From: Escherichia phage JLBYU37 | DNA: 45,011 nt | Reading direction: 5' to 3' (one strand) | Sequence record: NC_073054.1 | In this document: positions 3,395 to 44,776 of the stretch, piece by piece | Position numbering within the stretch: position 1 is the first letter of the stretch | Layout: each line of letters begins with the position of its first letter | The notes under the pieces: generated by a model | What the model saw: only the letters and a program-made list of their open reading frames with translations | Told to the model about the DNA's origin: nothing | Database searches by the model: none | Position numbers and translations under genes: made by a program

Positions 3395-3586
3395 ATGAAA
3401 GCAGAAATGAGCATTATGCGCGCTGGCGCGGCGGAAAACGACGAGATTCGAATCGTCATTAGACTGGAACGTGGCAAGACCATTACGGCACTTGTCACGC
3501 CTGAAAACCTGGCGCTGGCGCTAACCGGTCGATCGGATATACCGGTAGACCTTCGTCTGCGTAACGTGGAATTGCAAACTAAATGA
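3395..3586 (+). CDS. small hypothetical protein (63 aa)
   Basis: ATG 3395 with AGGAAG upstream; same frame as track ORF 3350-3586; stop overlaps the next ATG (ATGA). Confidence 0.4.
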   Translation: MKAEMSIMRAGAAENDEIRIVIRLERGKTITALVTPENLALALTGRSDIPVDLRLRNVELQTK

Positions 3587-3861
3587 CACCAGAAGGCAAG
3601 ATTCAAAGTCACCTGATGAGACGGGTGAAAGATGTTGGCGGATTCTGCCGCAAACTGGCATGGGAGGGGCGCGCAGGTGCGCCCGATCTGATTATCATCA
3701 TCAACGGCAAAATAGTGTTCGTCGAAGTGAAGCGCCCCGGAGGAAAACCGAAGCCGCACCAGGTACGTGAACATGAGCGGATGGCCCGCCGCGGCGCTGA
3801 CGTTCGCGTTATAGACAACATCGCCGACTGTGATTTATTGGTTGCTGAATTGGTCGCATAG
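3583..3861 (+). CDS. VRR-NUC family nuclease
   Basis: 92 aa; PD-(D/E)XK-type core DLIII...VFVEVKRPGG typical of VRR-NUC. Confidence 0.75.
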   Translation: MTPEGKIQSHLMRRVKDVGGFCRKLAWEGRAGAPDLIIIINGKIVFVEVKRPGGKPKPHQVREHERMARRGADVRVIDNIADCDLLVAELVA

Positions 3862-4341: not shown

Positions 4342-5766
4342 ATGGCACGTTTCCGACGTCGCGAATATCAGAAGTTGATAACCGCGTTCATCCTCAAGCA
4401 TAAGCGCTGCAATATTTGGGCGACAATGGGGTCGGGTAAAACCGGCGCGACCATGTGGGCGCTGAATAAAATGTTCCAGACTGGCATCCTGTCCGACCAG
4501 GATGACCGCGTACTGGTGCTGGCCCCGCTGCGCGTTGCGTCCGGTACATGGCCCCCGGAACAGGAGAAATGGCGCTTCCCAGCCTTGCTGGTAGTAGACG
4601 GCACTGGGCCAGAGAAGGACCGCATCGCTGCGCTTGAGAGCGACGCTAACGTGGTTTGTATTAACTATGATGTAGTTGAGTGGCTTGTTGAGTATTGCGG
4701 CGACGAGTGGCCCTTTACGGTCGTGGTTGCCGATGAATCCACTAAGCTGAAAGGCTATAGAAGCAAGCAGGGAAGTAAGCGCGCCCGTGCGCTGGCAGCG
4801 ATCGCACATAAGCACGTCAAGCGCTGGATTAACCTGACTGGCACACCCGCACCAAACGGACTGAAAGACCTGTGGGGTCAGACGTGGTTTGTCGACGGTG
4901 GCGAACGCCTCGGCAGTAGTTATAAGGCATTCACAGACCGCTGGTTTATTAGCAAGCCGGTTAAGCCTGGCAGCTTCACGACGCAGCACGCCCCGCTTAA
5001 GAACTCCGAGAAAGAAATACAACAACGACTGTCCGACGTGTCGCTAACCGTTGATGCGGCTGAATACTTCGGGTGTGACAAGCCAATCTATACGCCGGTT
5101 GTTGTGGACCTGCCGAAAAAAGCACGCAAGATTTATGACCAATTCGAAGCGGAGCTATTTGCCGAACTGGAAAGCGGAACGGTGGAGGCGGCGAACGCTG
5201 CTTCGAAGACTATTAAGGGCCTTCAGCTTGCTTCCGGGGCCGTGTATAAGGTCGACGAAGACGGCGAGCGCACCGACGAATGGGTGAAAATTCACGACGC
5301 TAAACTGGACGCGCTGGAAAGTATCGTGGAGGAGTTGAACGGCGCACCGTTGCTCGTTGCCTACCAGTACAAGCATGATCTGGCACGTCTCAAGAAGAAA
5401 TTCCCGCACGGCGTTGCGTTGGGTAAAGGTAAGCAGGGCAATAAGGATATGGAAGCGTGGAACAGGGGCGAGATCCCCATCATGTTTGCACACCCGGCAT
5501 CGGCAGGTCACGGCCTTAACTTGCAGGATGGAGGACACCACCTTGCTATCTTTTCCGACACCTGGAACTATGAGCACTTTGCGCAGATCGTGGAGCGTAT
5601 CGGGCCTGTCCGCCAGATGCAAGCCGGGCACCCTCGTCCAGTATTCGTCTACATTATCCAGGCGCGCGGCACACTGGATGAACTGGTCGCCGAACGTCGC
5701 GACAGCAAGCGTGATATTCAGGACGACTTGATGGAATACATGAAAGCTAAAAAGGCGCGCAAATGA
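4342..5766 (+). CDS. SNF2/DEAD-like superfamily 2 helicase
   Basis: Track ORF 4252-5766; likely start ATG 4342 (MARFRRREYQ) with AGGCGGA RBS. Walker A-like MGSGKTG, motif II ADEST, C-terminal helicase domain. Confidence 0.85.
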   Translation: MARFRRREYQKLITAFILKHKRCNIWATMGSGKTGATMWALNKMFQTGILSDQDDRVLVLAPLRVASGTWPPEQEKWRFPALLVVDGTGPEKDRIAALESDANVVCINYDVVEWLVEYCGDEWPFTVVVADESTKLKGYRSKQGSKRARALAAIAHKHVKRWINLTGTPAPNGLKDLWGQTWFVDGGERLGSSYKAFTDRWFISKPVKPGSFTTQHAPLKNSEKEIQQRLSDVSLTVDAAEYFGCDKPIYTPVVVDLPKKARKIYDQFEAELFAELESGTVEAANAASKTIKGLQLASGAVYKVDEDGERTDEWVKIHDAKLDALESIVEELNGAPLLVAYQYKHDLARLKKKFPHGVALGKGKQGNKDMEAWNRGEIPIMFAHPASAGHGLNLQDGGHHLAIFSDTWNYEHFAQIVERIGPVRQMQAGHPRPVFVYIIQARGTLDELVAERRDSKRDIQDDLMEYMKAKKARK

Positions 5767-6458
5767 TAATCTGGTCATTGTTTGACGGCAGCGGCTTGAT
5801 GATTGAGCGTGCTGCCGAGATGGGGCATAAGTGCTACTGTTTTAACTACTCCGAAGCTGATCACGGGTCATACCTTGACTACCGGATTTATGGTCGCGGG
5901 ATCCGGTATCGCAATGAGTTTATCGATCTGGACTTCGTGGACCGAGCGATGAATGGCGATTTCGGTACGCCGGATATCATTTATGCTTTCCCCCCGTGTA
6001 CGGATCTGGCAGTGAGCGGCGCGCCAGCTTTCCCGCGCAAGCGTGCTAAAGACCCGGCCTTCCAGCTTAAGGCGGTGCGCACCGCGAAGATCGCAGCTTA
6101 CCTGGGTGACTTCTTCGAAGTGCCGTATATGATTGAGAATCCGCGCAGTGTGCTTTCCACACAGTGGCGTAAGCCAGACCACTCGTTTGATCCGTGGGAG
6201 TATGGCGGCTATCTGCCGGAGGATGACGTGCACCCGTTGTTCCCGGAATACATCAACGCGCGCGATTCATATCCGAAGCGGACCTGCTTATGGACCGGCA
6301 ACGGCTTTCGTATGCCAGAGAAAAAGCCTGTATTCGTTGAAAAAGGGTACTCGAAGCAGTATAGTCGCCTCGGAGGCAAATCAGCCCGCACAAAATTAAT
6401 CCGGTCGCTCACTCCGCGCGGCTTCGCGATAGCGGTTAACGAGGAAAATTTAAAATGA
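5763..6458 (+). CDS. short C5-cytosine DNA methyltransferase-like protein
   Basis: 231 aa; motif I FDGSG, motif IV FPPCTDLAVSG (PC dipeptide), ENP near motif VI; too short for a normal target-recognition domain. ATGA overlap with the helicase stop. Confidence 0.55.
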   Translation: MIIWSLFDGSGLMIERAAEMGHKCYCFNYSEADHGSYLDYRIYGRGIRYRNEFIDLDFVDRAMNGDFGTPDIIYAFPPCTDLAVSGAPAFPRKRAKDPAFQLKAVRTAKIAAYLGDFFEVPYMIENPRSVLSTQWRKPDHSFDPWEYGGYLPEDDVHPLFPEYINARDSYPKRTCLWTGNGFRMPEKKPVFVEKGYSKQYSRLGGKSARTKLIRSLTPRGFAIAVNEENLK

Positions 6459-6838: not shown

Positions 6839-6855
6839 AATATGAGGATTTGACG

Positions 6856-7098
6856 ATGAAACGATTCTTTTTAGATTACGACGGTGATTTGCGGTTATGG
6901 GTGTGCATGGTGCTGTTCTTATTCTTTTGTCTCCTGCTGCCGATTTCCTGCACGTATAACCTCGATAAATATGAATGCCGTATTGTCTACGCAGAACTAA
7001 CAGGTCGTAACACCCAGTGGCGCTATGGCACTTGCTGGGTTGAAATGGATGGCAAATTTATACCACGCAAAGAAATTCGCATGACGGAGATTAAATAA
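6856..7098 (+). CDS. small cysteine-containing membrane/secreted protein (80 aa)
   Basis: ATG 6856 with GAGGA 8 nt upstream; hydrophobic segment LWVCMVLFLFFCLLLPISC; four Cys. Confidence 0.5.
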   Translation: MKRFFLDYDGDLRLWVCMVLFLFFCLLLPISCTYNLDKYECRIVYAELTGRNTQWRYGTCWVEMDGKFIPRKEIRMTEIK

Positions 7099-7556
7099 TG
7101 AAAATTTTACAAGAAGAGAAAGCGTATTGGGTAGCACAGTGTCTTGAAGCCCGCGAGAAAGCGGAAGGAGCTACCGCGCTGGCAAATACCTACCTGGCTA
7201 GCTATGAAGAAGAAGAGAAGGTCCGAAAGGAATTAGAGGAACGCTTCGAACTGCTGGGCGAACTGATTACCATTATGCAGCGCACCGGATACACAACATC
7301 CGTATCGCTCACCCGGCTAACTGCCGATGGTCTGCGTGAGCATTGCAAACGTGCCGAGGAGTACGTCCGTCCGAAGGGCAGCCAGTCTTCGATCCCGCGG
7401 AAAGGACTGGTGCGTATAGCGTGGCGTGCAAACGGCAGCTACTATTCCGATAGCCGACCGCTCAGTAGGGCGGAGCTATCCCGAGTCCAACGCGTGCTAT
7501 CCGGTGGCAAGAAAACCGCCCTGTATGCGATAGATCCCGACTATGACGGAGAATGA
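7098..7556 (+). CDS. hypothetical protein (152 aa)
   Basis: Start overlaps the previous stop (TAATG); N-terminal helical E/K-rich region; no recognised motif. Confidence 0.5.
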   Translation: MKILQEEKAYWVAQCLEAREKAEGATALANTYLASYEEEEKVRKELEERFELLGELITIMQRTGYTTSVSLTRLTADGLREHCKRAEEYVRPKGSQSSIPRKGLVRIAWRANGSYYSDSRPLSRAELSRVQRVLSGGKKTALYAIDPDYDGE

Positions 7557-8052
7557 GCAGAAGGATAGCTGGCGCACGCCGCCAGCTTTATTTAAGCCAC
7601 TGCGCAAGGCGTTTAAATTCCGCTACGACATGGCGGCGAGCGACCACAACCATCTATTACCGCGCTACTTCACGAAAGAGCACAGCGCGCTTGATGCTGA
7701 CTGGTCAGAGTTAACAGGGTGGAAGTGGTGCAATCCTCCGTATTCCGACCCGCTGCCGTGGGTGACTTGCGCATCGCGGGGGCGTAAGACGGTAATGTTG
7801 CTCAACCAGGATACGACCACGAAGTGGGCCAAACTGGCAAGGCAAACCGCCAACCTGATTATTTTGCTGGACTGGCGGATCCGGTTTATACACGCCGTCA
7901 CCGGTAAGGTCGGGCCGAGTAACAACAAGTGCCAGCAATTGATAATCTTTGAAGAAGTGCCGCCAAACGGAAGCGCACAAATCGAAATAATGAGCGAAGG
8001 TGAATTAAATGAATATCTTAGTCGTCGATCGAAGTCCTCGCGTTGTGGATGA
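7543..8052 (+). CDS. phage Dam-type N6-adenine DNA methyltransferase
   Basis: 169 aa; WRTPPALF N-terminus and catalytic CNPPYSD motif. Confidence 0.7.
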   Translation: MTENEQKDSWRTPPALFKPLRKAFKFRYDMAASDHNHLLPRYFTKEHSALDADWSELTGWKWCNPPYSDPLPWVTCASRGRKTVMLLNQDTTTKWAKLARQTANLIILLDWRIRFIHAVTGKVGPSNNKCQQLIIFEEVPPNGSAQIEIMSEGELNEYLSRRSKSSRCG

Positions 8053-8230
8053 AATAATTAAACGCTACCAGGTTTTCCCTGGAAATAAAGTAAGGCGCGC
8101 AAGCCAACCTCATCAATTGCTGGGCCTTGACCTAACTGGCTGGCTTGTCATGACGGCGCGTTGCCATCTTGTGTGCGACGCATTCTCGGCCCGTATTGTA
8201 CGTGAAAATTTAATGGCGGAATTAAAATGA
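8009..8230 (+). CDS. small hypothetical protein (73 aa)
   Basis: GAAGGTGA RBS 5 nt upstream of ATG 8009; overlaps the Dam 3' end; stop coupled to the next ATG (ATGA). Confidence 0.35.
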   Translation: MNILVVDRSPRVVDEIIKRYQVFPGNKVRRASQPHQLLGLDLTGWLVMTARCHLVCDAFSARIVRENLMAELK

Positions 8231-8697
8231 AACTACTGATTTGCGATTTGGATGGCGTTATTAACGGTTCAAGCGATGCGCGTGCCGACCTGGTGCCGGG
8301 GATAAAAACGAAATCAACCTTTTGGGTAAAGTGGCACAAAGCGCACGTTCGCGAAGACCTGAACATGGATATGCTGCCGCTACTGCGCATGTATCAAGAG
8401 CAAGGCTTCGAGATCGCGTATCTGACAAACCGGCAGCGCGAATGCTGGGACACCACCGCCGAGCAATTGGAAGTATTCCCCGTAGGGCGGTTGTTTATGC
8501 GCCACATGCTGGACGACACCCCGCCGCCAGAGTTTAAGGCGTGCGCCGTGTTCAAAATGGTCTGCTACGCGGACGTGTCAGAACTGGTCATCATTGAAGA
8601 CTGCCCGAAGAACATTGCAGCTATCCGTCGGGCGTGTAGCGATTTGGTCCCGAATATTTACGCAATAAACGTTGCGAAATTCACTTGCAACCAATAG
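8227..8697 (+). CDS. HAD-superfamily phosphatase-like protein
   Basis: 156 aa; N-terminal LICDLDGVIN resembles HAD motif I (DxDG). Confidence 0.5.
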   Translation: MKLLICDLDGVINGSSDARADLVPGIKTKSTFWVKWHKAHVREDLNMDMLPLLRMYQEQGFEIAYLTNRQRECWDTTAEQLEVFPVGRLFMRHMLDDTPPPEFKACAVFKMVCYADVSELVIIEDCPKNIAAIRRACSDLVPNIYAINVAKFTCNQ

Positions 8698-8714: not shown

Positions 8715-8759
8715 TAACGCGTCGGGGCGATATGGCCCCTAACTAAAAAGGACCACATA

Positions 8760-9281
8760 ATGAAAGCATACGAATACTGCAAAAACGCCGCCACCACTAT
8801 GGAACAGCGCGGAAAAGAAAACGGCTATGACAACGCGAAAGAGGAACGCAGCGCGAAACAAATTGCCGCCGTGTTTAACGCGCTTACCGGTCGCGACCTT
8901 ACCGAGCAAGAAGCCTGGACCTTCTTGATCTGCCTGAAGCTGGTGCGCCAGCACCGTAAGCACCAGGAAGACAATATCGTCGACCTGGTGGCGTATGCGG
9001 CCTTGCTGGGCGAGTCTTACATGACCGTGCATGATGAGATTCAGGTCGATACAACGGCAGCGCAATACGACAGCCTTAAAGGCTGGCCCATCGCCACCGG
9101 CGGAACGTGGCATCCTTCGTCATCGGCAGGCAAGACTGTCAAAGCCGCCAATTTCGGCGTAGCGGCCCAGGACGTCCAGCCTATGGTCGTGCTCACGGGC
9201 GAAGACGGATCGAAAATCCTCATGACGCCGGAAGATTTCCGCAACATGGAAAAAACACTGGTGACTGGCGCACTGAAATAA
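8760..9281 (+). CDS. hypothetical protein (173 aa) with a conserved phage alpha-helical N-terminal domain
   Basis: AAGGA RBS; signature IAAVFNALTGRDLTEQEAWTFLICLKLVRQ...DNIVDLVAYAAL recalled as a widespread phage domain, family not confirmed. Confidence 0.5.
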   Translation: MKAYEYCKNAATTMEQRGKENGYDNAKEERSAKQIAAVFNALTGRDLTEQEAWTFLICLKLVRQHRKHQEDNIVDLVAYAALLGESYMTVHDEIQVDTTAAQYDSLKGWPIATGGTWHPSSSAGKTVKAANFGVAAQDVQPMVVLTGEDGSKILMTPEDFRNMEKTLVTGALK

Positions 9282-9323
9282 TTCTAATCGCGGGCCGAAG
9301 CCCGCATCAATGAGGACCACACA

Positions 9324-9899
9324 ATGTACGGCGAATATGAAATATCAGGTAAACAATTCCACCTGGCGGCAATGATAGCAAGCATCGAGTTTGACCAATG
9401 GCGCTTAAAGTCTGACGCGTGCAAGCAAAGCCGACTCGTCGGTGTGCTGGGTGAAATGTTTGCGGGCATGTACCTTGAAGGGCAAGCAGGCGGGCGCAGT
9501 TGTATACCGCAAGGTTTGCTCATGCGTACCGGCTTGTTTAGTGCCAATACCATTGATCGCGGCGATATCATCATGGTCGGCAAGCGCAAGGTGAAGTCCG
9601 GTCCCGACTTCCGCGAGCATGTGATCGATGCCGTCTGGACCTACGAGGTTAAAGCCACCAGCGGCATTCGCCGCGGACTGGTTGAGGCACGTTGCGCTCG
9701 CGAGTATCTTGCCCGTCGAGTTGCTGGTGTTATCCTGGTGAGCGTAGATTTCGGACAACATAACGCGCACGGCGTGATTGAAGATATCGCGGAACCATAC
9801 GTCATCGTTAATGACTGGCCCTTAGTGGAAGTTGAGGGCAAGGAATATTACGAAAGCCCGCTAGTACGGCGCAAAATGGACTGGGAAAACTCAAACTAG
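9324..9899 (+). CDS. hypothetical protein (191 aa), possible PD-(D/E)XK-fold nuclease
   Basis: AGGA RBS; candidate motif GDIIMVGKRK...WTYEVKATSG (D ... E-x-K). Confidence 0.4.
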   Translation: MYGEYEISGKQFHLAAMIASIEFDQWRLKSDACKQSRLVGVLGEMFAGMYLEGQAGGRSCIPQGLLMRTGLFSANTIDRGDIIMVGKRKVKSGPDFREHVIDAVWTYEVKATSGIRRGLVEARCAREYLARRVAGVILVSVDFGQHNAHGVIEDIAEPYVIVNDWPLVEVEGKEYYESPLVRRKMDWENSN

Positions 9900-9904
9900 A
9901 AAAA

Positions 9905-9930
9905 GGGGCCGCATGGCCCCTTCTATTTAT
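9905..9930. terminator. bidirectional hairpin terminator between convergent genes
   Basis: GGGGCC-gcat-GGCCCC with A run upstream and T-rich run downstream; separates gene 9324-9899 (+) from the tail fibre gene (-). Confidence 0.6.
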
Positions 9931-12344
9931 TTCTTCAACGCCGCGATCTCGGCCTTCAAATCCTCCACCTGCTTATTGAGATATTGAACACACCCCATCA
10001 AGTCCATTACGATCGGGTTAACGTCGATGGATGGGCGGTCCGTCATCTTCTCCCCGATCTTGTTGCCGTCTTCGTCGAGAATATCCTCGATCGGGAACTC
10101 GTGGTGCTTAACGTACTGCGGCGCAATTAACTCCGCTTCTTCGGCGATAATACCGAAGCGCTGGCGGGCCTGCTCATCATCCTTATACACGAAGTTAACA
10201 AGGTGCTGGCTGTTAATGCGGTCCATAGCTTCGCTTGCGTCCGCATCGGCAATATCTTTCTTATACTCGCGGCCGGATGTGCCTTGCAGCGCGATAGTCC
10301 CCGATGCGGTAGTCGGGAAGTTAAGCATAATTTCGCCGGTACGGTTCCCATCCTTACGTCGCATAAACAGGCGAAAATATCGAGTGCCGCTCTTGTCTAG
10401 TGCCGGTTCGAAGAACGTCCTACCGCCTACGACGTCGTTCGGCACGGTTTCGCCTACGGTGTAGTACGGTTCGAATGCAAATTGCGGGTAAGACCCGCGG
10501 CTTACTGCCAGGCTGCCGACGATATCTGACCCTGAACTGTTCACTGTTAGCTTGCCGGGTAGGGTCATCTCGCCGCGGGTGTTGAAGTCAATGCCTGAAC
10601 TCTGCGCCGTCTCCAGGTTAGTGATCGCCAGGCGGGCGTAAGTCTCACCGTCGATATTCGCACGGACGCGCAGCTTTGCTTCCGAGTGTAAAGAAGTACC
10701 GACACGATATTCAGATATAATGCTTCCGCCGTCTGCCGTAGTGCCCGCTGGTGGTTTAGTGGCGTCGCCGTTGATTACCGACCACGACGTGTTAGCGGCG
10801 GCGAATCCGCCTGACGCTCGAATAACCCACACGCCCATGAAGTTATTGGGGCGCAACTCCGATACGGTCCGGCCATAGATCGCGTTGACCTTCGAGGCGT
10901 CCATGTTAATGATGCCGTAGGAGACTGCGCCGTTACCAACAGGTAGGTTGCCTAGCGACCGATATTGCGAAGCCGCTCCACCAGCCCCGTGGAACGCGCC
11001 ACTTTCATGGTTGATAATACTTGCTGACCCGCCGCCGTGTAATTCGATGCGGCCTGTGATGTTAGGTGCTCCTGATTCGTAGATATACCCATCGTTGCCA
11101 CTTTGCCCGCCGTCACCCCGGCAGAACAAGCCGAATATTGACCCAGGCTGAACGCCATTACGGTCCGGCACTCGGAAGGTAGTTGTGCCGTCACCCGTAG
11201 AATACTTTCCGCGCTGATTTGGGTTTGCCAGCCAGGTCTCGTCACTAATTGGCGACAGCATTTGCGCATACGCCCAAAGCTCAGGCCAATCAGCGCGGTT
11301 TAACAATTGACCATCGGACACCACTTCGTAAGGTTGAATATACGCGCGGCTGTCCCGTAAATGGAAATCACCTACGCCATAGTTCATGACGCCGTTCATT
11401 GTAGGGCCGACAGTGCCGGTGTTGATCAGGTTCTGCACCCAGCGCTTTGTCGTGGCGTCGTAGTCACCAACAGGGTCGCCGGCCAGTGGTGTTGCCCCGT
11501 CCGGGCGAACGTTAAGCCAGGCTCGCGGTTTGTCGGTGAGTCCCGCCAGGTTGCCTGATTTTGTTAGCAGGTTATCCGCGTTAACGCTTTGCGCCCACTC
11601 CTCGGCCTGATCGCGGAATCCCTGCGCGGCTGTGCTGGCAGCTTGCGCGTCCGTCTTCGCGGTGTTGGCCTCGTCCCTCATAACGCCGGTGTCAGTCTTG
11701 ATCTGGTTCGTCTGGTCTTTGATGGCCTGCGTATCAGTCTTAATCTGGTCCGTCTGCGTCTTGATGGTATTGGTGGCGTCGTGGATAGCCTGCGTATCCG
11801 CCTTAATCTGGTCAGTCTGCGTCTTGATTGTATTGGTATCGTTTTTGAAGCCTTCGGCCTCATCCCGAAATCCTTGCGCTGCGGATTTCGATGCTTCGGC
11901 TTGCGCTGCGATGTCGCGCATCTCAACGGGGTCTACGTTCTTAAGCAATTCCGACAGGTATCCCCATGACATTCCCTGCATGACTTGCCCGTTAGGTAAC
12001 GTCACTGTGATTTCTTCAGCGTCGCCGAAGATTGCGCGCCAGTTGTTTTCATCTGCGATCATCAAGCGCAACGCTTTCTGCGCCTGTACTGTTACGCCCA
12101 TCGTTGCCAGCGACATGGTATCGCGCTTAACGCCATCCCACGCAAGGCCGGTTGCCGTTGGGCCGTCGAACGGCAGAACCAGCGTGAGCGCGGTTGCGCT
12201 TTCAATGGACGCGATTGCCACGGTGTAGGGGACTTGTCCTACCACCAGCGTTAAGAAGTCGCCAGCTTCAAACGCGGTAAACGTTGTGCCGACCCCTACT
12301 ACCGCCTTGCTATTGTTCGTTACGGATAGTGTACCCGCTGCCAT
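9927..12344 (-). CDS. tail fibre with C-terminal intramolecular chaperone (peptidase S74-like) domain
   Basis: Track ORF 9927-12371; likely start ATG 12344 (MAAGTLSV) with GAGGA upstream. Central coiled-coil repeats; C-terminus ...DADASEAMDRINSQHLVNFVYKDDEQ...LKAEIAALKK typical of self-cleaving chaperone domains. Confidence 0.8.
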   Translation of the reverse strand: MAAGTLSVTNNSKAVVGVGTTFTAFEAGDFLTLVVGQVPYTVAIASIESATALTLVLPFDGPTATGLAWDGVKRDTMSLATMGVTVQAQKALRLMIADENNWRAIFGDAEEITVTLPNGQVMQGMSWGYLSELLKNVDPVEMRDIAAQAEASKSAAQGFRDEAEGFKNDTNTIKTQTDQIKADTQAIHDATNTIKTQTDQIKTDTQAIKDQTNQIKTDTGVMRDEANTAKTDAQAASTAAQGFRDQAEEWAQSVNADNLLTKSGNLAGLTDKPRAWLNVRPDGATPLAGDPVGDYDATTKRWVQNLINTGTVGPTMNGVMNYGVGDFHLRDSRAYIQPYEVVSDGQLLNRADWPELWAYAQMLSPISDETWLANPNQRGKYSTGDGTTTFRVPDRNGVQPGSIFGLFCRGDGGQSGNDGYIYESGAPNITGRIELHGGGSASIINHESGAFHGAGGAASQYRSLGNLPVGNGAVSYGIINMDASKVNAIYGRTVSELRPNNFMGVWVIRASGGFAAANTSWSVINGDATKPPAGTTADGGSIISEYRVGTSLHSEAKLRVRANIDGETYARLAITNLETAQSSGIDFNTRGEMTLPGKLTVNSSGSDIVGSLAVSRGSYPQFAFEPYYTVGETVPNDVVGGRTFFEPALDKSGTRYFRLFMRRKDGNRTGEIMLNFPTTASGTIALQGTSGREYKKDIADADASEAMDRINSQHLVNFVYKDDEQARQRFGIIAEEAELIAPQYVKHHEFPIEDILDEDGNKIGEKMTDRPSIDVNPIVMDLMGCVQYLNKQVEDLKAEIAALKK
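11695..11841 (-). repeat. tandem ~63 bp repeats (about 2.3 copies) inside the tail fibre gene
   Basis: GTCTTGAT...CTTAATCTGGTC.GTCTGC units at 11695, 11758 and 11821 encode 21-aa repeats (TNTIKTQTDQIK.DTQAI.D). Confidence 0.6.
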
Positions 12345-12361
12345 AGCTAAATCCTCATAAA

Positions 12362-12407
12362 TTGGTTGCAATCCTGGCTGAGCGGTGTAATACTAAAACT
12401 CAACCAA
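12362..12407 (+). promoter_or_regulatory. promoter/operator in the divergent region between tail fibre and lipoprotein genes
   Basis: TTGGTTGCA 12362-12370 supplies -35 TTGCAA (12366-12371); TAATAC at 12388-12393; inverted half-site CAACCAA at 12401-12407. Confidence 0.45.
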
Positions 12408-34402: not shown

Positions 34403-35545
34403 TTACTTCAACATTTCCGGGCTAATGGTTAAGCGCGCTACTTCGCCGTAGTTGGCGCTATAGGTGATGACGTTTGCGCTGCGACCGGACATCCAACCGC
34501 CACGACTGGCGTAGGCGTCTTTCGCTGCGAGCGTCCGGTGCTGTTCAACAATCATGTTGCGGGATTCTACAATCTTCTGGTGGTGCAAGTGGCCTACGTG
34601 CGCGTAGCTGTACTCACTGGATCCGAAAGCCTGTCTGAATTTAGAAATCATAACCTGCTCGATAGCATCGAATCGCGCTTTGTGCCCGTGGTGGAAGAAT
34701 AGCGTGGTCTTACCGTGCTGCACCATTTTGTAGACGTCCGGGGACGTATCCACATCGACGCGCGGCTCGTTCTCGTACAGAGTATTGAACATCTCAGCCA
34801 GCCAAATCATACCCGACTCGTCATGATTTCCCTGGACGATTAGCAGTTTGACTTTGTGGTGTTTTTGCAGCGCCAGTTCGACGACGTTGCGCACCATGCG
34901 AATCATGTATCGGACCAGTTTCTGGTAGCGGGTGTCGGCGTCCAGTATGTGACCACTTGCCGGAGTGACAGCATCGAGGCTATCAAAGTGGGCCATATCA
35001 CCGAGGATATTAATTACGGCAGTGCCTGCGTCCGGGGCGCGTGCGAAGGCTTCGACAAACCAGCGGTAGAACAGGTCTTCGGCGATCGCCATATCCCAGT
35101 CTTCGCCAGTCTCCTCGCCCCATGCCAACATGCCCAGGTGGAAGTCTGACACGGTGTACAGGTTGAGCAAGTCGAGCGCCTGGATCGGTACTGGCGGGGC
35201 GCTAACTGGTGCTGCCGGTGTGATTTCGCTGTTCATACCCTCGACAACGGCGCGCATAGCTTCGAGTTGGCGCTCTTTGTCCTGCTCAGTGATGACCCAC
35301 GACATGACCTCTTCGCCATTGCCGCGCACCAGGGCCGATACGCGCTTAACCCCAAAGCCATCGGCAACGCGCTTGCGGATTACGGCATCGTTGCCGTGTC
35401 CAATGCCTTTTTTCGACAGGCGTGCTTTGCGCATATAAACATTGCGCAGTGCAATGCCGTATTTTTTCGCGATATCTTTCGACGTAGTGCCTGCTTGCAA
35501 TTCTGCGATCAATTGCTCGTCGGTGATTTTAGTTTGCGGGTGCAT
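34403..35545 (-). CDS. HTH domain fused to Mre11/SbcD-type metallophosphoesterase
   Basis: 380 aa; N-terminal TSKDIAKKYGIALRNVYMRKARL; phosphoesterase motifs SDFHLG, GDMAHFD, GNHDE, FFHHGH, GHLHH. Confidence 0.65.
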   Translation of the reverse strand: MHPQTKITDEQLIAELQAGTTSKDIAKKYGIALRNVYMRKARLSKKGIGHGNDAVIRKRVADGFGVKRVSALVRGNGEEVMSWVITEQDKERQLEAMRAVVEGMNSEITPAAPVSAPPVPIQALDLLNLYTVSDFHLGMLAWGEETGEDWDMAIAEDLFYRWFVEAFARAPDAGTAVINILGDMAHFDSLDAVTPASGHILDADTRYQKLVRYMIRMVRNVVELALQKHHKVKLLIVQGNHDESGMIWLAEMFNTLYENEPRVDVDTSPDVYKMVQHGKTTLFFHHGHKARFDAIEQVMISKFRQAFGSSEYSYAHVGHLHHQKIVESRNMIVEQHRTLAAKDAYASRGGWMSGRSANVITYSANYGEVARLTISPEMLK

Positions 35546-43167: not shown

Positions 43168-43346
43168 TGAAATTCTTCGTCATGGCAACTTGCCACGAAT
43201 TAAACGATCACACTTCTTTTATTGTTGAAAACACCAACGCAAGCAATTGCTTTGTGGACGCGCAAAATGAAGTTAAGCGCCGAGTCGAAAAAGCGGGCCT
43301 GGCTAATGTGAAATATGTAATTGTCCAGTTTACACGGGTGGAATAA
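43167..43346 (+). CDS. hypothetical protein (59 aa)
   Basis: ATG 43167 in frame with track ORF 43086-43346; coupled on both sides. Confidence 0.4.
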   Translation: MKFFVMATCHELNDHTSFIVENTNASNCFVDAQNEVKRRVEKAGLANVKYVIVQFTRVE

Positions 43347-44776
43347 TGGCGATTAAACCAAAACGTAAAACGCAATCCGGTAGCAACACGGAACACTCAT
43401 TACTCGGGCCGTCCGGTGCTAAAAAATGGATGGGTTGCCCTGCCGCCCTGGTGGTGGAAAAAGATATCCCGAACGAATCCGGGCAAGCGGCGATTAACGG
43501 TACGAGTATGCACACCGTATCAGAGGTCGTGCTAAACCGCATTATCGCCGGTGAGAAGCTGATAACCGCGAAGACGTATAAAGGGTGCTACGTCGAGAAC
43601 GAAGGCAAGGGGCCAGTAAAGGCCCACCCGAAAGCACCGAAAGGCGGCGTACTGGTCAACGACGACATGGTGAAACAGTGCGACGCGTACATCGACCACT
43701 GGCGACCGCTCCTCGAAGTGGCGGAGTTTGTTCAGCTTGAGATGCGCGCCGATCTGACCCGCGTCCTTCACTCAGGCTTCGAGATCGACGGCAACCTGGT
43801 TAAGACGTTCGGTACTGCCGATATGGTTATGGTCATGAAGAAGACCGACGGCACGTACATGCTGATTGTTGGCGACCTGAAGACGGGACGACATAAGGTC
43901 GAGGCGAAAGAAAACAAACAGCTTATGTTGTACGCGCTCGGCCTGCTGCGCAAGCTGAAAACTATGTACGACATTACGACCGTGCGCCTGGTTATCTTCC
44001 AGCCGTATTGCGGCGGGGCGTCGGAGTGGGATATTTCGGTAGAAGCCCTGGAGATATTCGCGAAGTTTGCGTCCAAGCGTGCTATCGCCGCCCTGGAAGC
44101 GTACGCCCGCGGCAAAAAGGGACTCACCCGTGCCGACTTCAGACCGAGCGTTGATGCGTGTCAGTGGTGCCGATTTGCGGATCAGTGTAGCGCCCGCGCT
44201 AAGGCCGCAATCGACACGATGACCCCACCAACGGCAACAGACGAAGACCTGGGCGACGACGTGAGTATTGCGACAGAGGAAGAATGCGCCAATCACGATC
44301 GCAATATGACCCGCGAAGCCCGCAAAGCGGCACGACGTGCGAAGCGTAGTAAGAAAGAAGCGGCACCAGGCGCTATGAGCGCGGCGGAACTGCGCAAGGC
44401 ATATGAGGGTCTAGACGCAATGCGCCAGCACATCAAGGCTATCGAGTCCGCGGTATTCAAGGCCGTAATGGCGGGTGATGGCGAATCGCTGGGCCTCAAG
44501 ATGGTTGCCGGTAAGGAAGGGATTCGCAAGTGGGCGGACGAACGCGAAGTGATTGAAATCTTCACTAAGGCCCGGATCAAGCGCGATGTGATGTACAAAG
44601 AAACATTACTCAGTCCTACCGATGCCGAGAAGGTACTGAAGGACGAGAAGCCGAAAGTATGGGCGAAGCTGTGTGATAAAATCACGCGCGCACCGGCTAA
44701 ACCGGTATTAGCGCCAATAGACGACCCGCGCCCTGCGTGGTCTGAAGCTACTGACGAGGACTTAAGCAATGAATAA
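43346..44776 (+). CDS. Cas4-like PD-(D/E)XK nuclease (DUF2800-type)
   Basis: 476 aa; central D...E-x-K-type core (IVGDLKTGRHKVE...QLMLYALGL) and cysteine cluster CQWCRFADQC; usual partner of the DUF2815/polymerase/helicase module. Confidence 0.65.
   Translation: MAIKPKRKTQSGSNTEHSLLGPSGAKKWMGCPAALVVEKDIPNESGQAAINGTSMHTVSEVVLNRIIAGEKLITAKTYKGCYVENEGKGPVKAHPKAPKGGVLVNDDMVKQCDAYIDHWRPLLEVAEFVQLEMRADLTRVLHSGFEIDGNLVKTFGTADMVMVMKKTDGTYMLIVGDLKTGRHKVEAKENKQLMLYALGLLRKLKTMYDITTVRLVIFQPYCGGASEWDISVEALEIFAKFASKRAIAALEAYARGKKGLTRADFRPSVDACQWCRFADQCSARAKAAIDTMTPPTATDEDLGDDVSIATEEECANHDRNMTREARKAARRAKRSKKEAAPGAMSAAELRKAYEGLDAMRQHIKAIESAVFKAVMAGDGESLGLKMVAGKEGIRKWADEREVIEIFTKARIKRDVMYKETLLSPTDAEKVLKDEKPKVWAKLCDKITRAPAKPVLAPIDDPRPAWSEATDEDLSNE

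Follow-up and report, generated by a model that had tools for sequence, protein, structure and literature searches.

A core gene at the end of the Dhillonvirus replication and DNA-modification operon is predicted to encode a small PD-(D/E)XK-fold nuclease

Background

Small nucleases of the PD-(D/E)XK superfamily are common in phages. Among the described proteins that bear comparison with the one considered here, the archaeal Holliday-junction resolvase Hjc (solved structures 2eo0 and 1gef; PF01870) has about 120-145 aa and an α-β-β-β-α-β core, with a glutamate in α1, an R-S pair on β1, an aspartate that starts β2 and an ExK motif in β3. Further comparisons are offered by type II restriction enzymes (HincII, 2aud; PvuII; DpnI) and by endonuclease I of phage T7 (gene 3), a small phage PD-(D/E)XK enzyme with an E/D/ExK site that is expressed together with DNA-metabolism genes and forms a domain-swapped dimer. 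Other systems have adopted the PD-(D/E)XK fold for functions other than nuclease activity.

Ksap1, a 74-aa Dhillonvirus protein whose gene is flanked by those for a methyltransferase and a phosphatase, directly activates the Klebsiella Avs2 (KpAvs2) sensor (PMC11564622), and the anti-Tmn protein is ORF35 of phage ΦSMS22 (PMC11846954). Escape-mutant atlases and the RAZR study map to the SSB, polymerase and portal genes, while proteomics of cells infected with phage EE09 detected four phage proteins, the orthologue of the gene described below (CDS7) not being among them. None of this literature (on Ksap1/KpAvs2, anti-Tmn, the escape-mutant atlas, RAZR and EE09 proteomics) concerns the gene that is the subject of the present analysis.

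This gene lies at positions 9324-9899 on the plus strand of Escherichia phage JLBYU37 (NC_073054.1), a Dhillonvirus, that is, an HK578/SO-1-like virulent siphophage of E. coli. The whole stretch analyzed, 45,011 nucleotides in length, is referred to below as the window. The original prediction, made from the sequence alone, had pointed to a possible PD-(D/E)XK nuclease signature in the product of this gene and had placed it at the end of an accessory block.

Results and discussion

The gene and its translation-initiation region

The open reading frame list and the sequence agree with the original prediction on the extent of the gene (9324-9899, plus strand, 191 aa), which has an ATG start preceded, 8 nt upstream, by a GAGGA Shine-Dalgarno element. 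The product is the orthologue of gp26 in both HK578 and SO-1 and belongs to PHROG 10558, a family with no functional annotation, whose profile spans residues 1-191 of 191 (E 1.2e-118) and also matches 14 of the 14 aligned homologues. Scans against Pfam, NCBIfam and PADLOC returned no family match for the protein, in line with the earlier statement that it has no clear family, and the same scans of all 14 family members returned no nuclease family.

In the translation-initiation region (9312-9326, plus strand; box at 9313-9326), the GAGGA element lies within the box AGGACCACAcAATG / AGGACCACAnAATG. The box AGGACCACAnAATG is identical before the last two genes of the operon, at 8749-8762 and 9313-9326. 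A pattern search yielded these two exact copies and two further matches with two mismatches, a total of four that was reached in none of 100 shuffles. Short GC-rich hairpins without a T-run precede both boxes, at about 8724-8739 and 9290-9305, which suggests that each box and the hairpin before it form a repeated intergenic cassette. The hairpin closest to the gene (GCGGGC-CGAA-GCCCGC, 9290-9305, plus strand; RNA fold -12.7 kcal/mol, z -1.9) has no T-run and is not a terminator but possibly an element of mRNA stability or processing.

Distribution and selective constraint

The gene is widely distributed in the genus. A 2-kb query around it had 80-95% identity to 155 phage records, with Dhillonviruses of Escherichia/Shigella making up almost the entire set, and tblastn of the protein retrieved 198 phage records, about 156 of which are Dhillonviruses at 78% identity or more. 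The DNA polymerase gene has 156 matching records, approximately the same number. Of the approximately 156 Dhillonvirus genomes in the collection, essentially all carry the gene, which is therefore a core gene.

In seven Dhillonvirus orthologues the length of the protein is fixed at 191 aa, and dN/dS ranges from 0.01 to 0.12 at dS values of 0.1-2.6. Comparison of the five terminal genes of the operon gave the lowest dN/dS (0.045, at 95.8% amino acid identity) for this gene, followed by Dam and the HAD phosphatase (0.11 each) and the DUF6378 gene (0.16); for the Ksap1-like ORF, at about 70% amino acid identity, dN/dS was not computable. This is a real gene under strong constraint. The label ‘accessory’ in the original prediction has to be abandoned, since the gene occurs in about as many records as the polymerase gene and no other of the five is under such strong purifying selection.

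A divergent branch of the family, at approximately 30-38% identity, includes about 40 T1-like phages of Klebsiella and Enterobacter and also phages of Pectobacterium and Dickeya. A scan with the single protein turned up no relative in 185,579 genomes that represent bacterial and archaeal species, and one entry labeled ‘Brucella’ among the relatives lies on a 47-kb, phage-sized contig. We read the family as restricted to phages because of this empty scan and because its members occur near-exclusively on contigs of phage-genome size. A fragment of the gene was also observed in the lambdoid Enterobacteria phage mEp021 (MH706966.1), where an unannotated remnant at 138-248 is 86% identical to residues 155-191 and adjoins a convergent tail-tip gene. 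This arrangement suggests that a tail-fibre module was exchanged with a Dhillonvirus and carried along the 3' end of the gene.

Sequence searches and family boundaries

Searches of PDB sequences with phmmer and with a profile (hmmsearch) gave chance matches only (ribosomal protein S4 and an FMN-binding protein). There was no match to Hjc (PF01870) when the 14 family members were compared with Pfam at E<=10, and when the family profile was aligned by hhalign with an Hjc profile of two sequences, one being Pfu Hjc (100% identical to 1gef_A), the probability was 0.1. Pfam likewise returned no match to VRR_NUC (PF08774), the VRR-NUC of this phage being a separate gene (3583-3861), and none to the Cas4/RecB-like PDDEXK_1 family, nor does the protein have the conserved cysteines of a four-cysteine Fe-S cluster (family members have from one to four cysteines, none of them conserved). 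Since sequence-profile methods provide no link, we rejected membership in Hjc, VRR-NUC, Cas4/PDDEXK_1 or any other defined family.

The family is also small. Only nine relatives came out of an exhaustive phmmer search through 1.84 billion representative proteins. Two profile searches, covering 5.8 billion proteins, brought in a few others, and all searches together gave only about 20 clusters. As none of these clusters has a Pfam domain, they contain no bridging relatives. One match (P0012, 478 aa, repetitive) was discarded as spurious, and gp005 of Klebsiella phage vB_KleS-HSE3 (P0016) was left out of the alignment as frameshifted. The latter protein reads as 211 aa with an unrelated C-terminus, owing to a frameshift after about residue 125 that is probably a sequencing or assembly error. 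In GenBank record PQ658967, the orthologue carries the label ‘restriction endonuclease’, which derives from automatic Prokka/UniProt transfer.

Candidate active-site residues

The original prediction was built on two segments, GDIIMVGKRK (residues 80-89) and TYEVK (residues 106-110), with 27 residues from D81 to E108. The residues and their spacing are indeed present, but the pattern is not above chance: D-x(8,35)-[DE]-x-K turns up in 60% of 5000 shuffles of the protein, and the native sequence itself holds a second, chance instance. The significance of the motif comes only from conservation and from structural placement.

Conservation singles out a small set of positions. D81 (codon 9564-9566; GD motif at the N-terminal end of β2) is the candidate catalytic aspartate, while E108 and K110, in the ExK motif of β3 (E108-V109-K110, codons 9645-9653), are the candidate catalytic glutamate and lysine; all three are invariant across the 14-member alignment, which reaches down to 27% identity, and D81 is so in every alignment made. 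E44 (codon 9453-9455; GVLGEMF motif in helix α1), a candidate metal ligand or auxiliary acidic residue, belongs to a GxxGE motif and is invariant in one alignment (A3) and at least 90% conserved in another (A5). In the 14-member alignment, at least 90% conservation was also found for R37, G40 and V109, as well as for R68, G64, G80, Y128, P158 and W165. The isoelectric point, which spans 5.2 to 9.5 in the family, was dropped as a discriminator between possible roles.

Predicted fold and structural matches

Fold prediction was the check that the original prediction had named, and it came out in favor of a PD-(D/E)XK protein. The final AlphaFold2 model was built from 14 sequences, with a pLDDT of 87.2 and a pTM of 0.84, all five models lying at 84-87. 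It replaced an earlier model from five close sequences, for which the pLDDT was 80.7 and the five models were inconsistent. The predicted elements are β4-8, α10-25, α31-54, β59-61, α63-68, β82-87, β101-112 and β119-121 in the first half of the order along the chain, followed by α122-130, β135-143, β147-156, α158-164, β167-170, β173-177 and α179-190. Within this order, α31-54, β59-61, β82-87, β101-112, α122-130 and β135-143 make up the α-β-β-β-α-β arrangement of the PD-(D/E)XK core. Placed relative to the predicted secondary-structure elements, by their order along the chain, the conserved residues take the canonical positions: E44 is in α1 (31-54), D81 stands immediately before β2 (82-87), and E108 and K110 are inside β3 (101-112).

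Comparison of the final model with the PDB by Foldseek gave Hjc ST1444 (2eo0) as the top match (E 3.4e-3, probability 0.97) and HincII (2aud) as the second (E 5e-2), and the top 24 went on to include Cas4, Hjc 1gef, Mus81, PvuII, AspBHI and DpnI. TM-scores to solved structures are low (0.3-0.4), and only the match to Hjc 2eo0 is individually convincing; as a whole, the list is strongly enriched for one superfamily. The earlier five-sequence model had no significant match in the PDB, although HincII, influenza PA-N and AspBHI were listed, and HincII was the second-best PDB match with both models. Among predicted viral structures (BFVD), Foldseek found 14 matches below 1e-3, with E-values down to 5e-7, TM-scores of 0.45-0.66 and 181-211 alignment columns, which is most of the query, at a sequence identity of 7-16%. 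They are mostly unnamed phage proteins of 150-200 aa, two being named ‘Restriction endonuclease’, and one protein lower in the list is named ‘PD(D/E)XK endonuclease domain-containing’. A0A6J7XSJ9 and A0A6J5NRJ2 are examples of these structural neighbors. These matches suggest a broad structural class of small uncharacterised phage nucleases.

We assign the protein to the PD-(D/E)XK superfamily (Pfam clan CL0236), with an intact predicted active site, because the confident model has the canonical core, the conserved residues lie in place and the Foldseek list is enriched for this superfamily. The assignment is supported at the level of a predicted structure, and it newly places an orphan phage family in a very well-known enzyme superfamily.

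The similarity to Hjc extends from the core topology and the positions of E, D and ExK to the R-S pair, which is found on β1 in both proteins. In contrast to this structural likeness, sequence-profile similarity is not detectable, and at 191 aa the phage protein is the longer one. It has an additional strand and helix at the N-terminus (residues 4-25) and another helix between β1 and β2; its β2-β3 hairpin is long, with 27 residues between the aspartate and the glutamate (12 in Hjc), and a β-β-α extension follows at the C-terminus. Type II enzymes are likewise among the structural matches, and the phage gene shares its operon with DNA methyltransferases; however, the E-values are marginal (5e-2 or worse), no cognate methyltransferase is adjacent, and the methyltransferase family varies by lineage. 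T7 endonuclease I resembles the protein as a functional analogue and was not among the Foldseek PDB matches.

Operon structure and neighboring genes

The gene is the last one of a plus-strand operon, which starts with genes for an Enc34-type SSB, PolA, VRR-NUC, an SNF2 helicase, a 231-aa methyltransferase (PHROG 757) and an HNH protein, and continues through an 82-aa ORF (6850-7098), an anti-Tmn-like gene, Dam, a Ksap1-like ORF, a HAD phosphatase and a DUF6378 gene to the gene under study and the terminator. The methyltransferases of the phage are encoded at 5763-6458 and 7543-8052. The neighbors named in the original prediction were correctly described. The gene at 8227-8697 (plus strand) encodes a HAD-superfamily, PNK-phosphatase-like protein with a DLDGV motif (PHROG 415 at 3.7e-36, and a weak Pfam match to Acid_phosphat_B, HAD IIIB), and the then unknown 173-aa protein directly upstream (8760-9281, plus strand) matches Pfam DUF6378 (E 1e-9). 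The putative bidirectional terminator is a strong, GC-rich hairpin at 9901-9924, which folds on both strands (-16.5 and -17.4 kcal/mol, z -3.5 and -3.3) and is shared by the plus-strand operon and the converging minus-strand tail-fibre gene (9927-12371), the C-terminus of which is an endosialidase-chaperone. According to a terminator scan of both strands, the minus strand has a clean T-run, while that of the plus strand is interrupted.

The homologues of metagenomic relatives and T1-like phages also lie at or near the 3' end of a primase/polymerase-methyltransferase operon, beyond which come either a terminator and the lysis cassette or convergent tail genes. Each of the eight lineages with enough upstream sequence (8/8) has the gene at or near the 3' end of its operon and a DNA methyltransferase gene 0.5-3.5 kb upstream in the same operon; these lineages represent only two related module types, so that this linkage is not independent support. 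The family of the upstream methyltransferase varies (Dam, PF05869; MT-A70; N6_N4_Mtase), and unrelated genes lie in between. A small HTH ORF abuts the homologue in two distant lineages, upstream in L009 (HTH_26, 4e-7) and downstream in L010 (HTH_3, 1e-14), and these ORFs resemble controller (C) proteins of R-M systems. The genome of JLBYU37 has no C-protein-like HTH ORF, the gene upstream being that for DUF6378.

Two other neighbors recur in the family. DUF6378 proteins, often mislabelled ‘phosphofructokinase’, co-occur with it in the window (8760-9281) and at L012 5277-5777, L009 5355-5789, L011 8275-9039 and L018 6805-7608, with Ymer among the contexts; their genes are adjacent in Dhillonvirus-like phages, whereas T1-like phages have them on the opposite strand at a distance of 0.5-2 kb. 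T1-like phages have a gene for a DNA-binding protein that resembles GcrA (faint Pfam GcrA match), two genes upstream of the homologue and just after Dam (L011 4958-5620; L004 3868-4530, annotated as ‘DNA-binding protein’ in KLB22). GcrA-type proteins read adenine methylation in Caulobacter.

Other nucleases and host-interaction genes of the genome

Two more genes of the window encode proteins of the PD-(D/E)XK superfamily. The 92-aa VRR-NUC (3583-3861, plus strand) has a further match to a PHROG with the annotation Holliday-junction resolvase, and other Dhillonvirus records list a putative Holliday junction resolvase beside the polymerase gene. The second protein is a DUF2800/PDDEXK_1 exonuclease of 476 aa (43346-44776, plus strand), which is accompanied by the Enc34-type ssDNA-binding protein (70-873). 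A further nuclease-type gene of the 45-kb genome encodes a calcineurin-like metallophosphoesterase of 379 aa (34403-35545, minus strand; PHROG 704 ‘DNA repair exonuclease’, SbcD/Mre11-like) and adjoins the small terminase gene.

Host-interaction genes lie in the same block as the gene at 9324-9899. The 73-aa ORF at 8009-8230 (plus strand; PHROG 10685), between Dam and the HAD phosphatase, is by its position the orthologue of Ksap1; its amino acid identity of about 70% among five phages makes it the fastest-evolving gene of the block. The 152-aa ORF at 7098-7556 (plus strand) is 74% identical to CDS0035 of ΦSMS22 (SM_S22) and most probably corresponds to anti-Tmn, judging by numbering and predicted structure; it is absent from HK578, and its PHROG label ‘DNA ligase’ (phrog_10530) is probably a mis-annotation. 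With Ksap1 being the ORF at 8009-8230 and anti-Tmn most likely that at 7098-7556, we rejected the identification of the gene at 9324-9899 with either of them.

Proposed function and alternative explanations

We propose that the product of the gene, the last one of a replication/DNA-modification operon, is probably a metal-dependent DNA endonuclease that has the PD-(D/E)XK fold and is competent for catalysis. In the proposed mechanism, the gene would be transcribed last, its product being made alongside the enzymes of replication and modification. Mg2+ would be bound by D81 and E108 with the help of E44, K110 would act as the general base or position the attacking water, and the protein would cleave DNA phosphodiester bonds.

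Provided that the protein is a nuclease, our tentative suggestion for its substrate is DNA that lacks the phage's own modification, that is, the host chromosome or co-infecting DNA. The phage genome would be shielded by the methyltransferases encoded upstream, and cleavage of unmodified DNA would supply nucleotides or remove competitors. We favor such a role because a resolvase candidate (VRR-NUC) and a recombination exonuclease (DUF2800) are already encoded, so that a third nuclease likely does something different, because the gene consistently shares an operon with methyltransferases that are expressed before it, and because type II enzymes are among its structural neighbors. Against it stand the differences in methyltransferase family between lineages and the unrelated genes that separate the methyltransferases from the nuclease gene, the Dam+ genotype of E. 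coli itself and the lack of a C-protein-like ORF in the window. The viability of SECphi18 escape mutants that have lost part of the Dam gene (PMC11564622) also counts against it. A more speculative idea, which we hold to be unlikely, is that the protein is the cutting arm of a dispersed phage-borne R-M-like module that exists in two replication-module types (Dhillonvirus-like and T1-like). The upstream genes would modify phage DNA, by methylation or otherwise, and the endonuclease, expressed last and in some lineages beside a C-protein-like HTH ORF, would shred unmodified host or competitor DNA. Such a module would be the bacterial-virus counterpart of the host-degrading R-M enzymes of chloroviruses.

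The main rival to cleavage of unmodified DNA, rather unlikely in our estimate, is that the endonuclease is structure-specific and acts like archaeal Hjc or T7 endonuclease I, to resolve Holliday junctions or to debranch DNA. It would then trim branched intermediates of replication and recombination ahead of headful packaging and might aid host DNA breakdown in the manner of T7 gp3. The appeal of this reading comes from the structural comparison, in which Hjc is the top solved match (2eo0, probability 0.97), 1gef and Mus81 are also listed, and the order of E44, R58/S59, D81 and E108/K110 mirrors that of E9, R25-S26, D33 and E46xK48 in Hjc 1gef; a core gene of a DNA-metabolism operon would also be a fitting place for it. 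However, the VRR-NUC of the same operon already matches the Holliday-junction-resolvase PHROG, and other Dhillonvirus records place their putative resolvase beside the polymerase gene. The hhalign probability of 0.1 against Hjc, the lack of a Pfam Hjc match, TM-scores of only 0.31 and 0.41 and a length that exceeds that of Hjc by 40-70 residues, with extra N- and C-terminal elements, likewise speak against a resolvase, as do the isoelectric points of the family (5.2-9.5), which are not uniformly basic.

The remaining explanations keep the fold and change the role. A nuclease engaged in counter-defence or regulation, for instance in degrading a nucleic-acid component of host immunity such as retron msDNA or guide or signal nucleic acids, or in RNA processing together with the PNK-like HAD phosphatase, would suit a block rich in host-interaction genes (the Ksap1 orthologue at 8009-8230 and the 74%-identical homologue of the putative anti-Tmn gene at 7098-7556) and the company of a PNK-type HAD phosphatase and DUF6378 in several lineages. 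Genes of this kind are usually variable and sporadic, as shown by Ksap1, with about 70% identity, and by anti-Tmn, which HK578 lacks, but the gene at 9324-9899 is universal in the genus and the best conserved of the block; moreover, none of the published escape-mutant and anti-defence screens examined maps to it, and it has no PADLOC match. We consider this role quite improbable. Even less credit, to the point of being very improbable, is given to a non-catalytic protein that keeps a PD-(D/E)XK-like scaffold, such as a DNA-binding or structural adaptor. This fold has been recruited elsewhere for non-nuclease functions, but inactivated members usually lose their catalytic residues, and here, over a range of 27-96% identity, all four canonical positions for catalysis show no or almost no variation. 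Both the counter-defence and the non-catalytic roles are made less likely by the universal presence of the gene, its tight constraint and the integrity of the catalytic residues.

Conclusions

The result is useful for annotation rather than conceptually new, small PD-(D/E)XK nucleases being frequent among phages. It concerns a core gene that is annotated as ‘hypothetical protein’ across sequenced siphophages of enterobacteria, about 200 in number and including many under development for therapy or biocontrol, and for which a predicted function can now be tested. The block that contains the gene also includes an immune trigger defined by experiment (Ksap1) and a gene that probably acts against host defence (anti-Tmn), and the function of the putative nuclease would help to interpret this region. 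If the protein is a resolvase, it would explain how phage DNA is debranched before headful packaging. Degradation of host or foreign DNA, if this is what the protein does, would have consequences for the risk of transduction, for burst size and for competition between phages.
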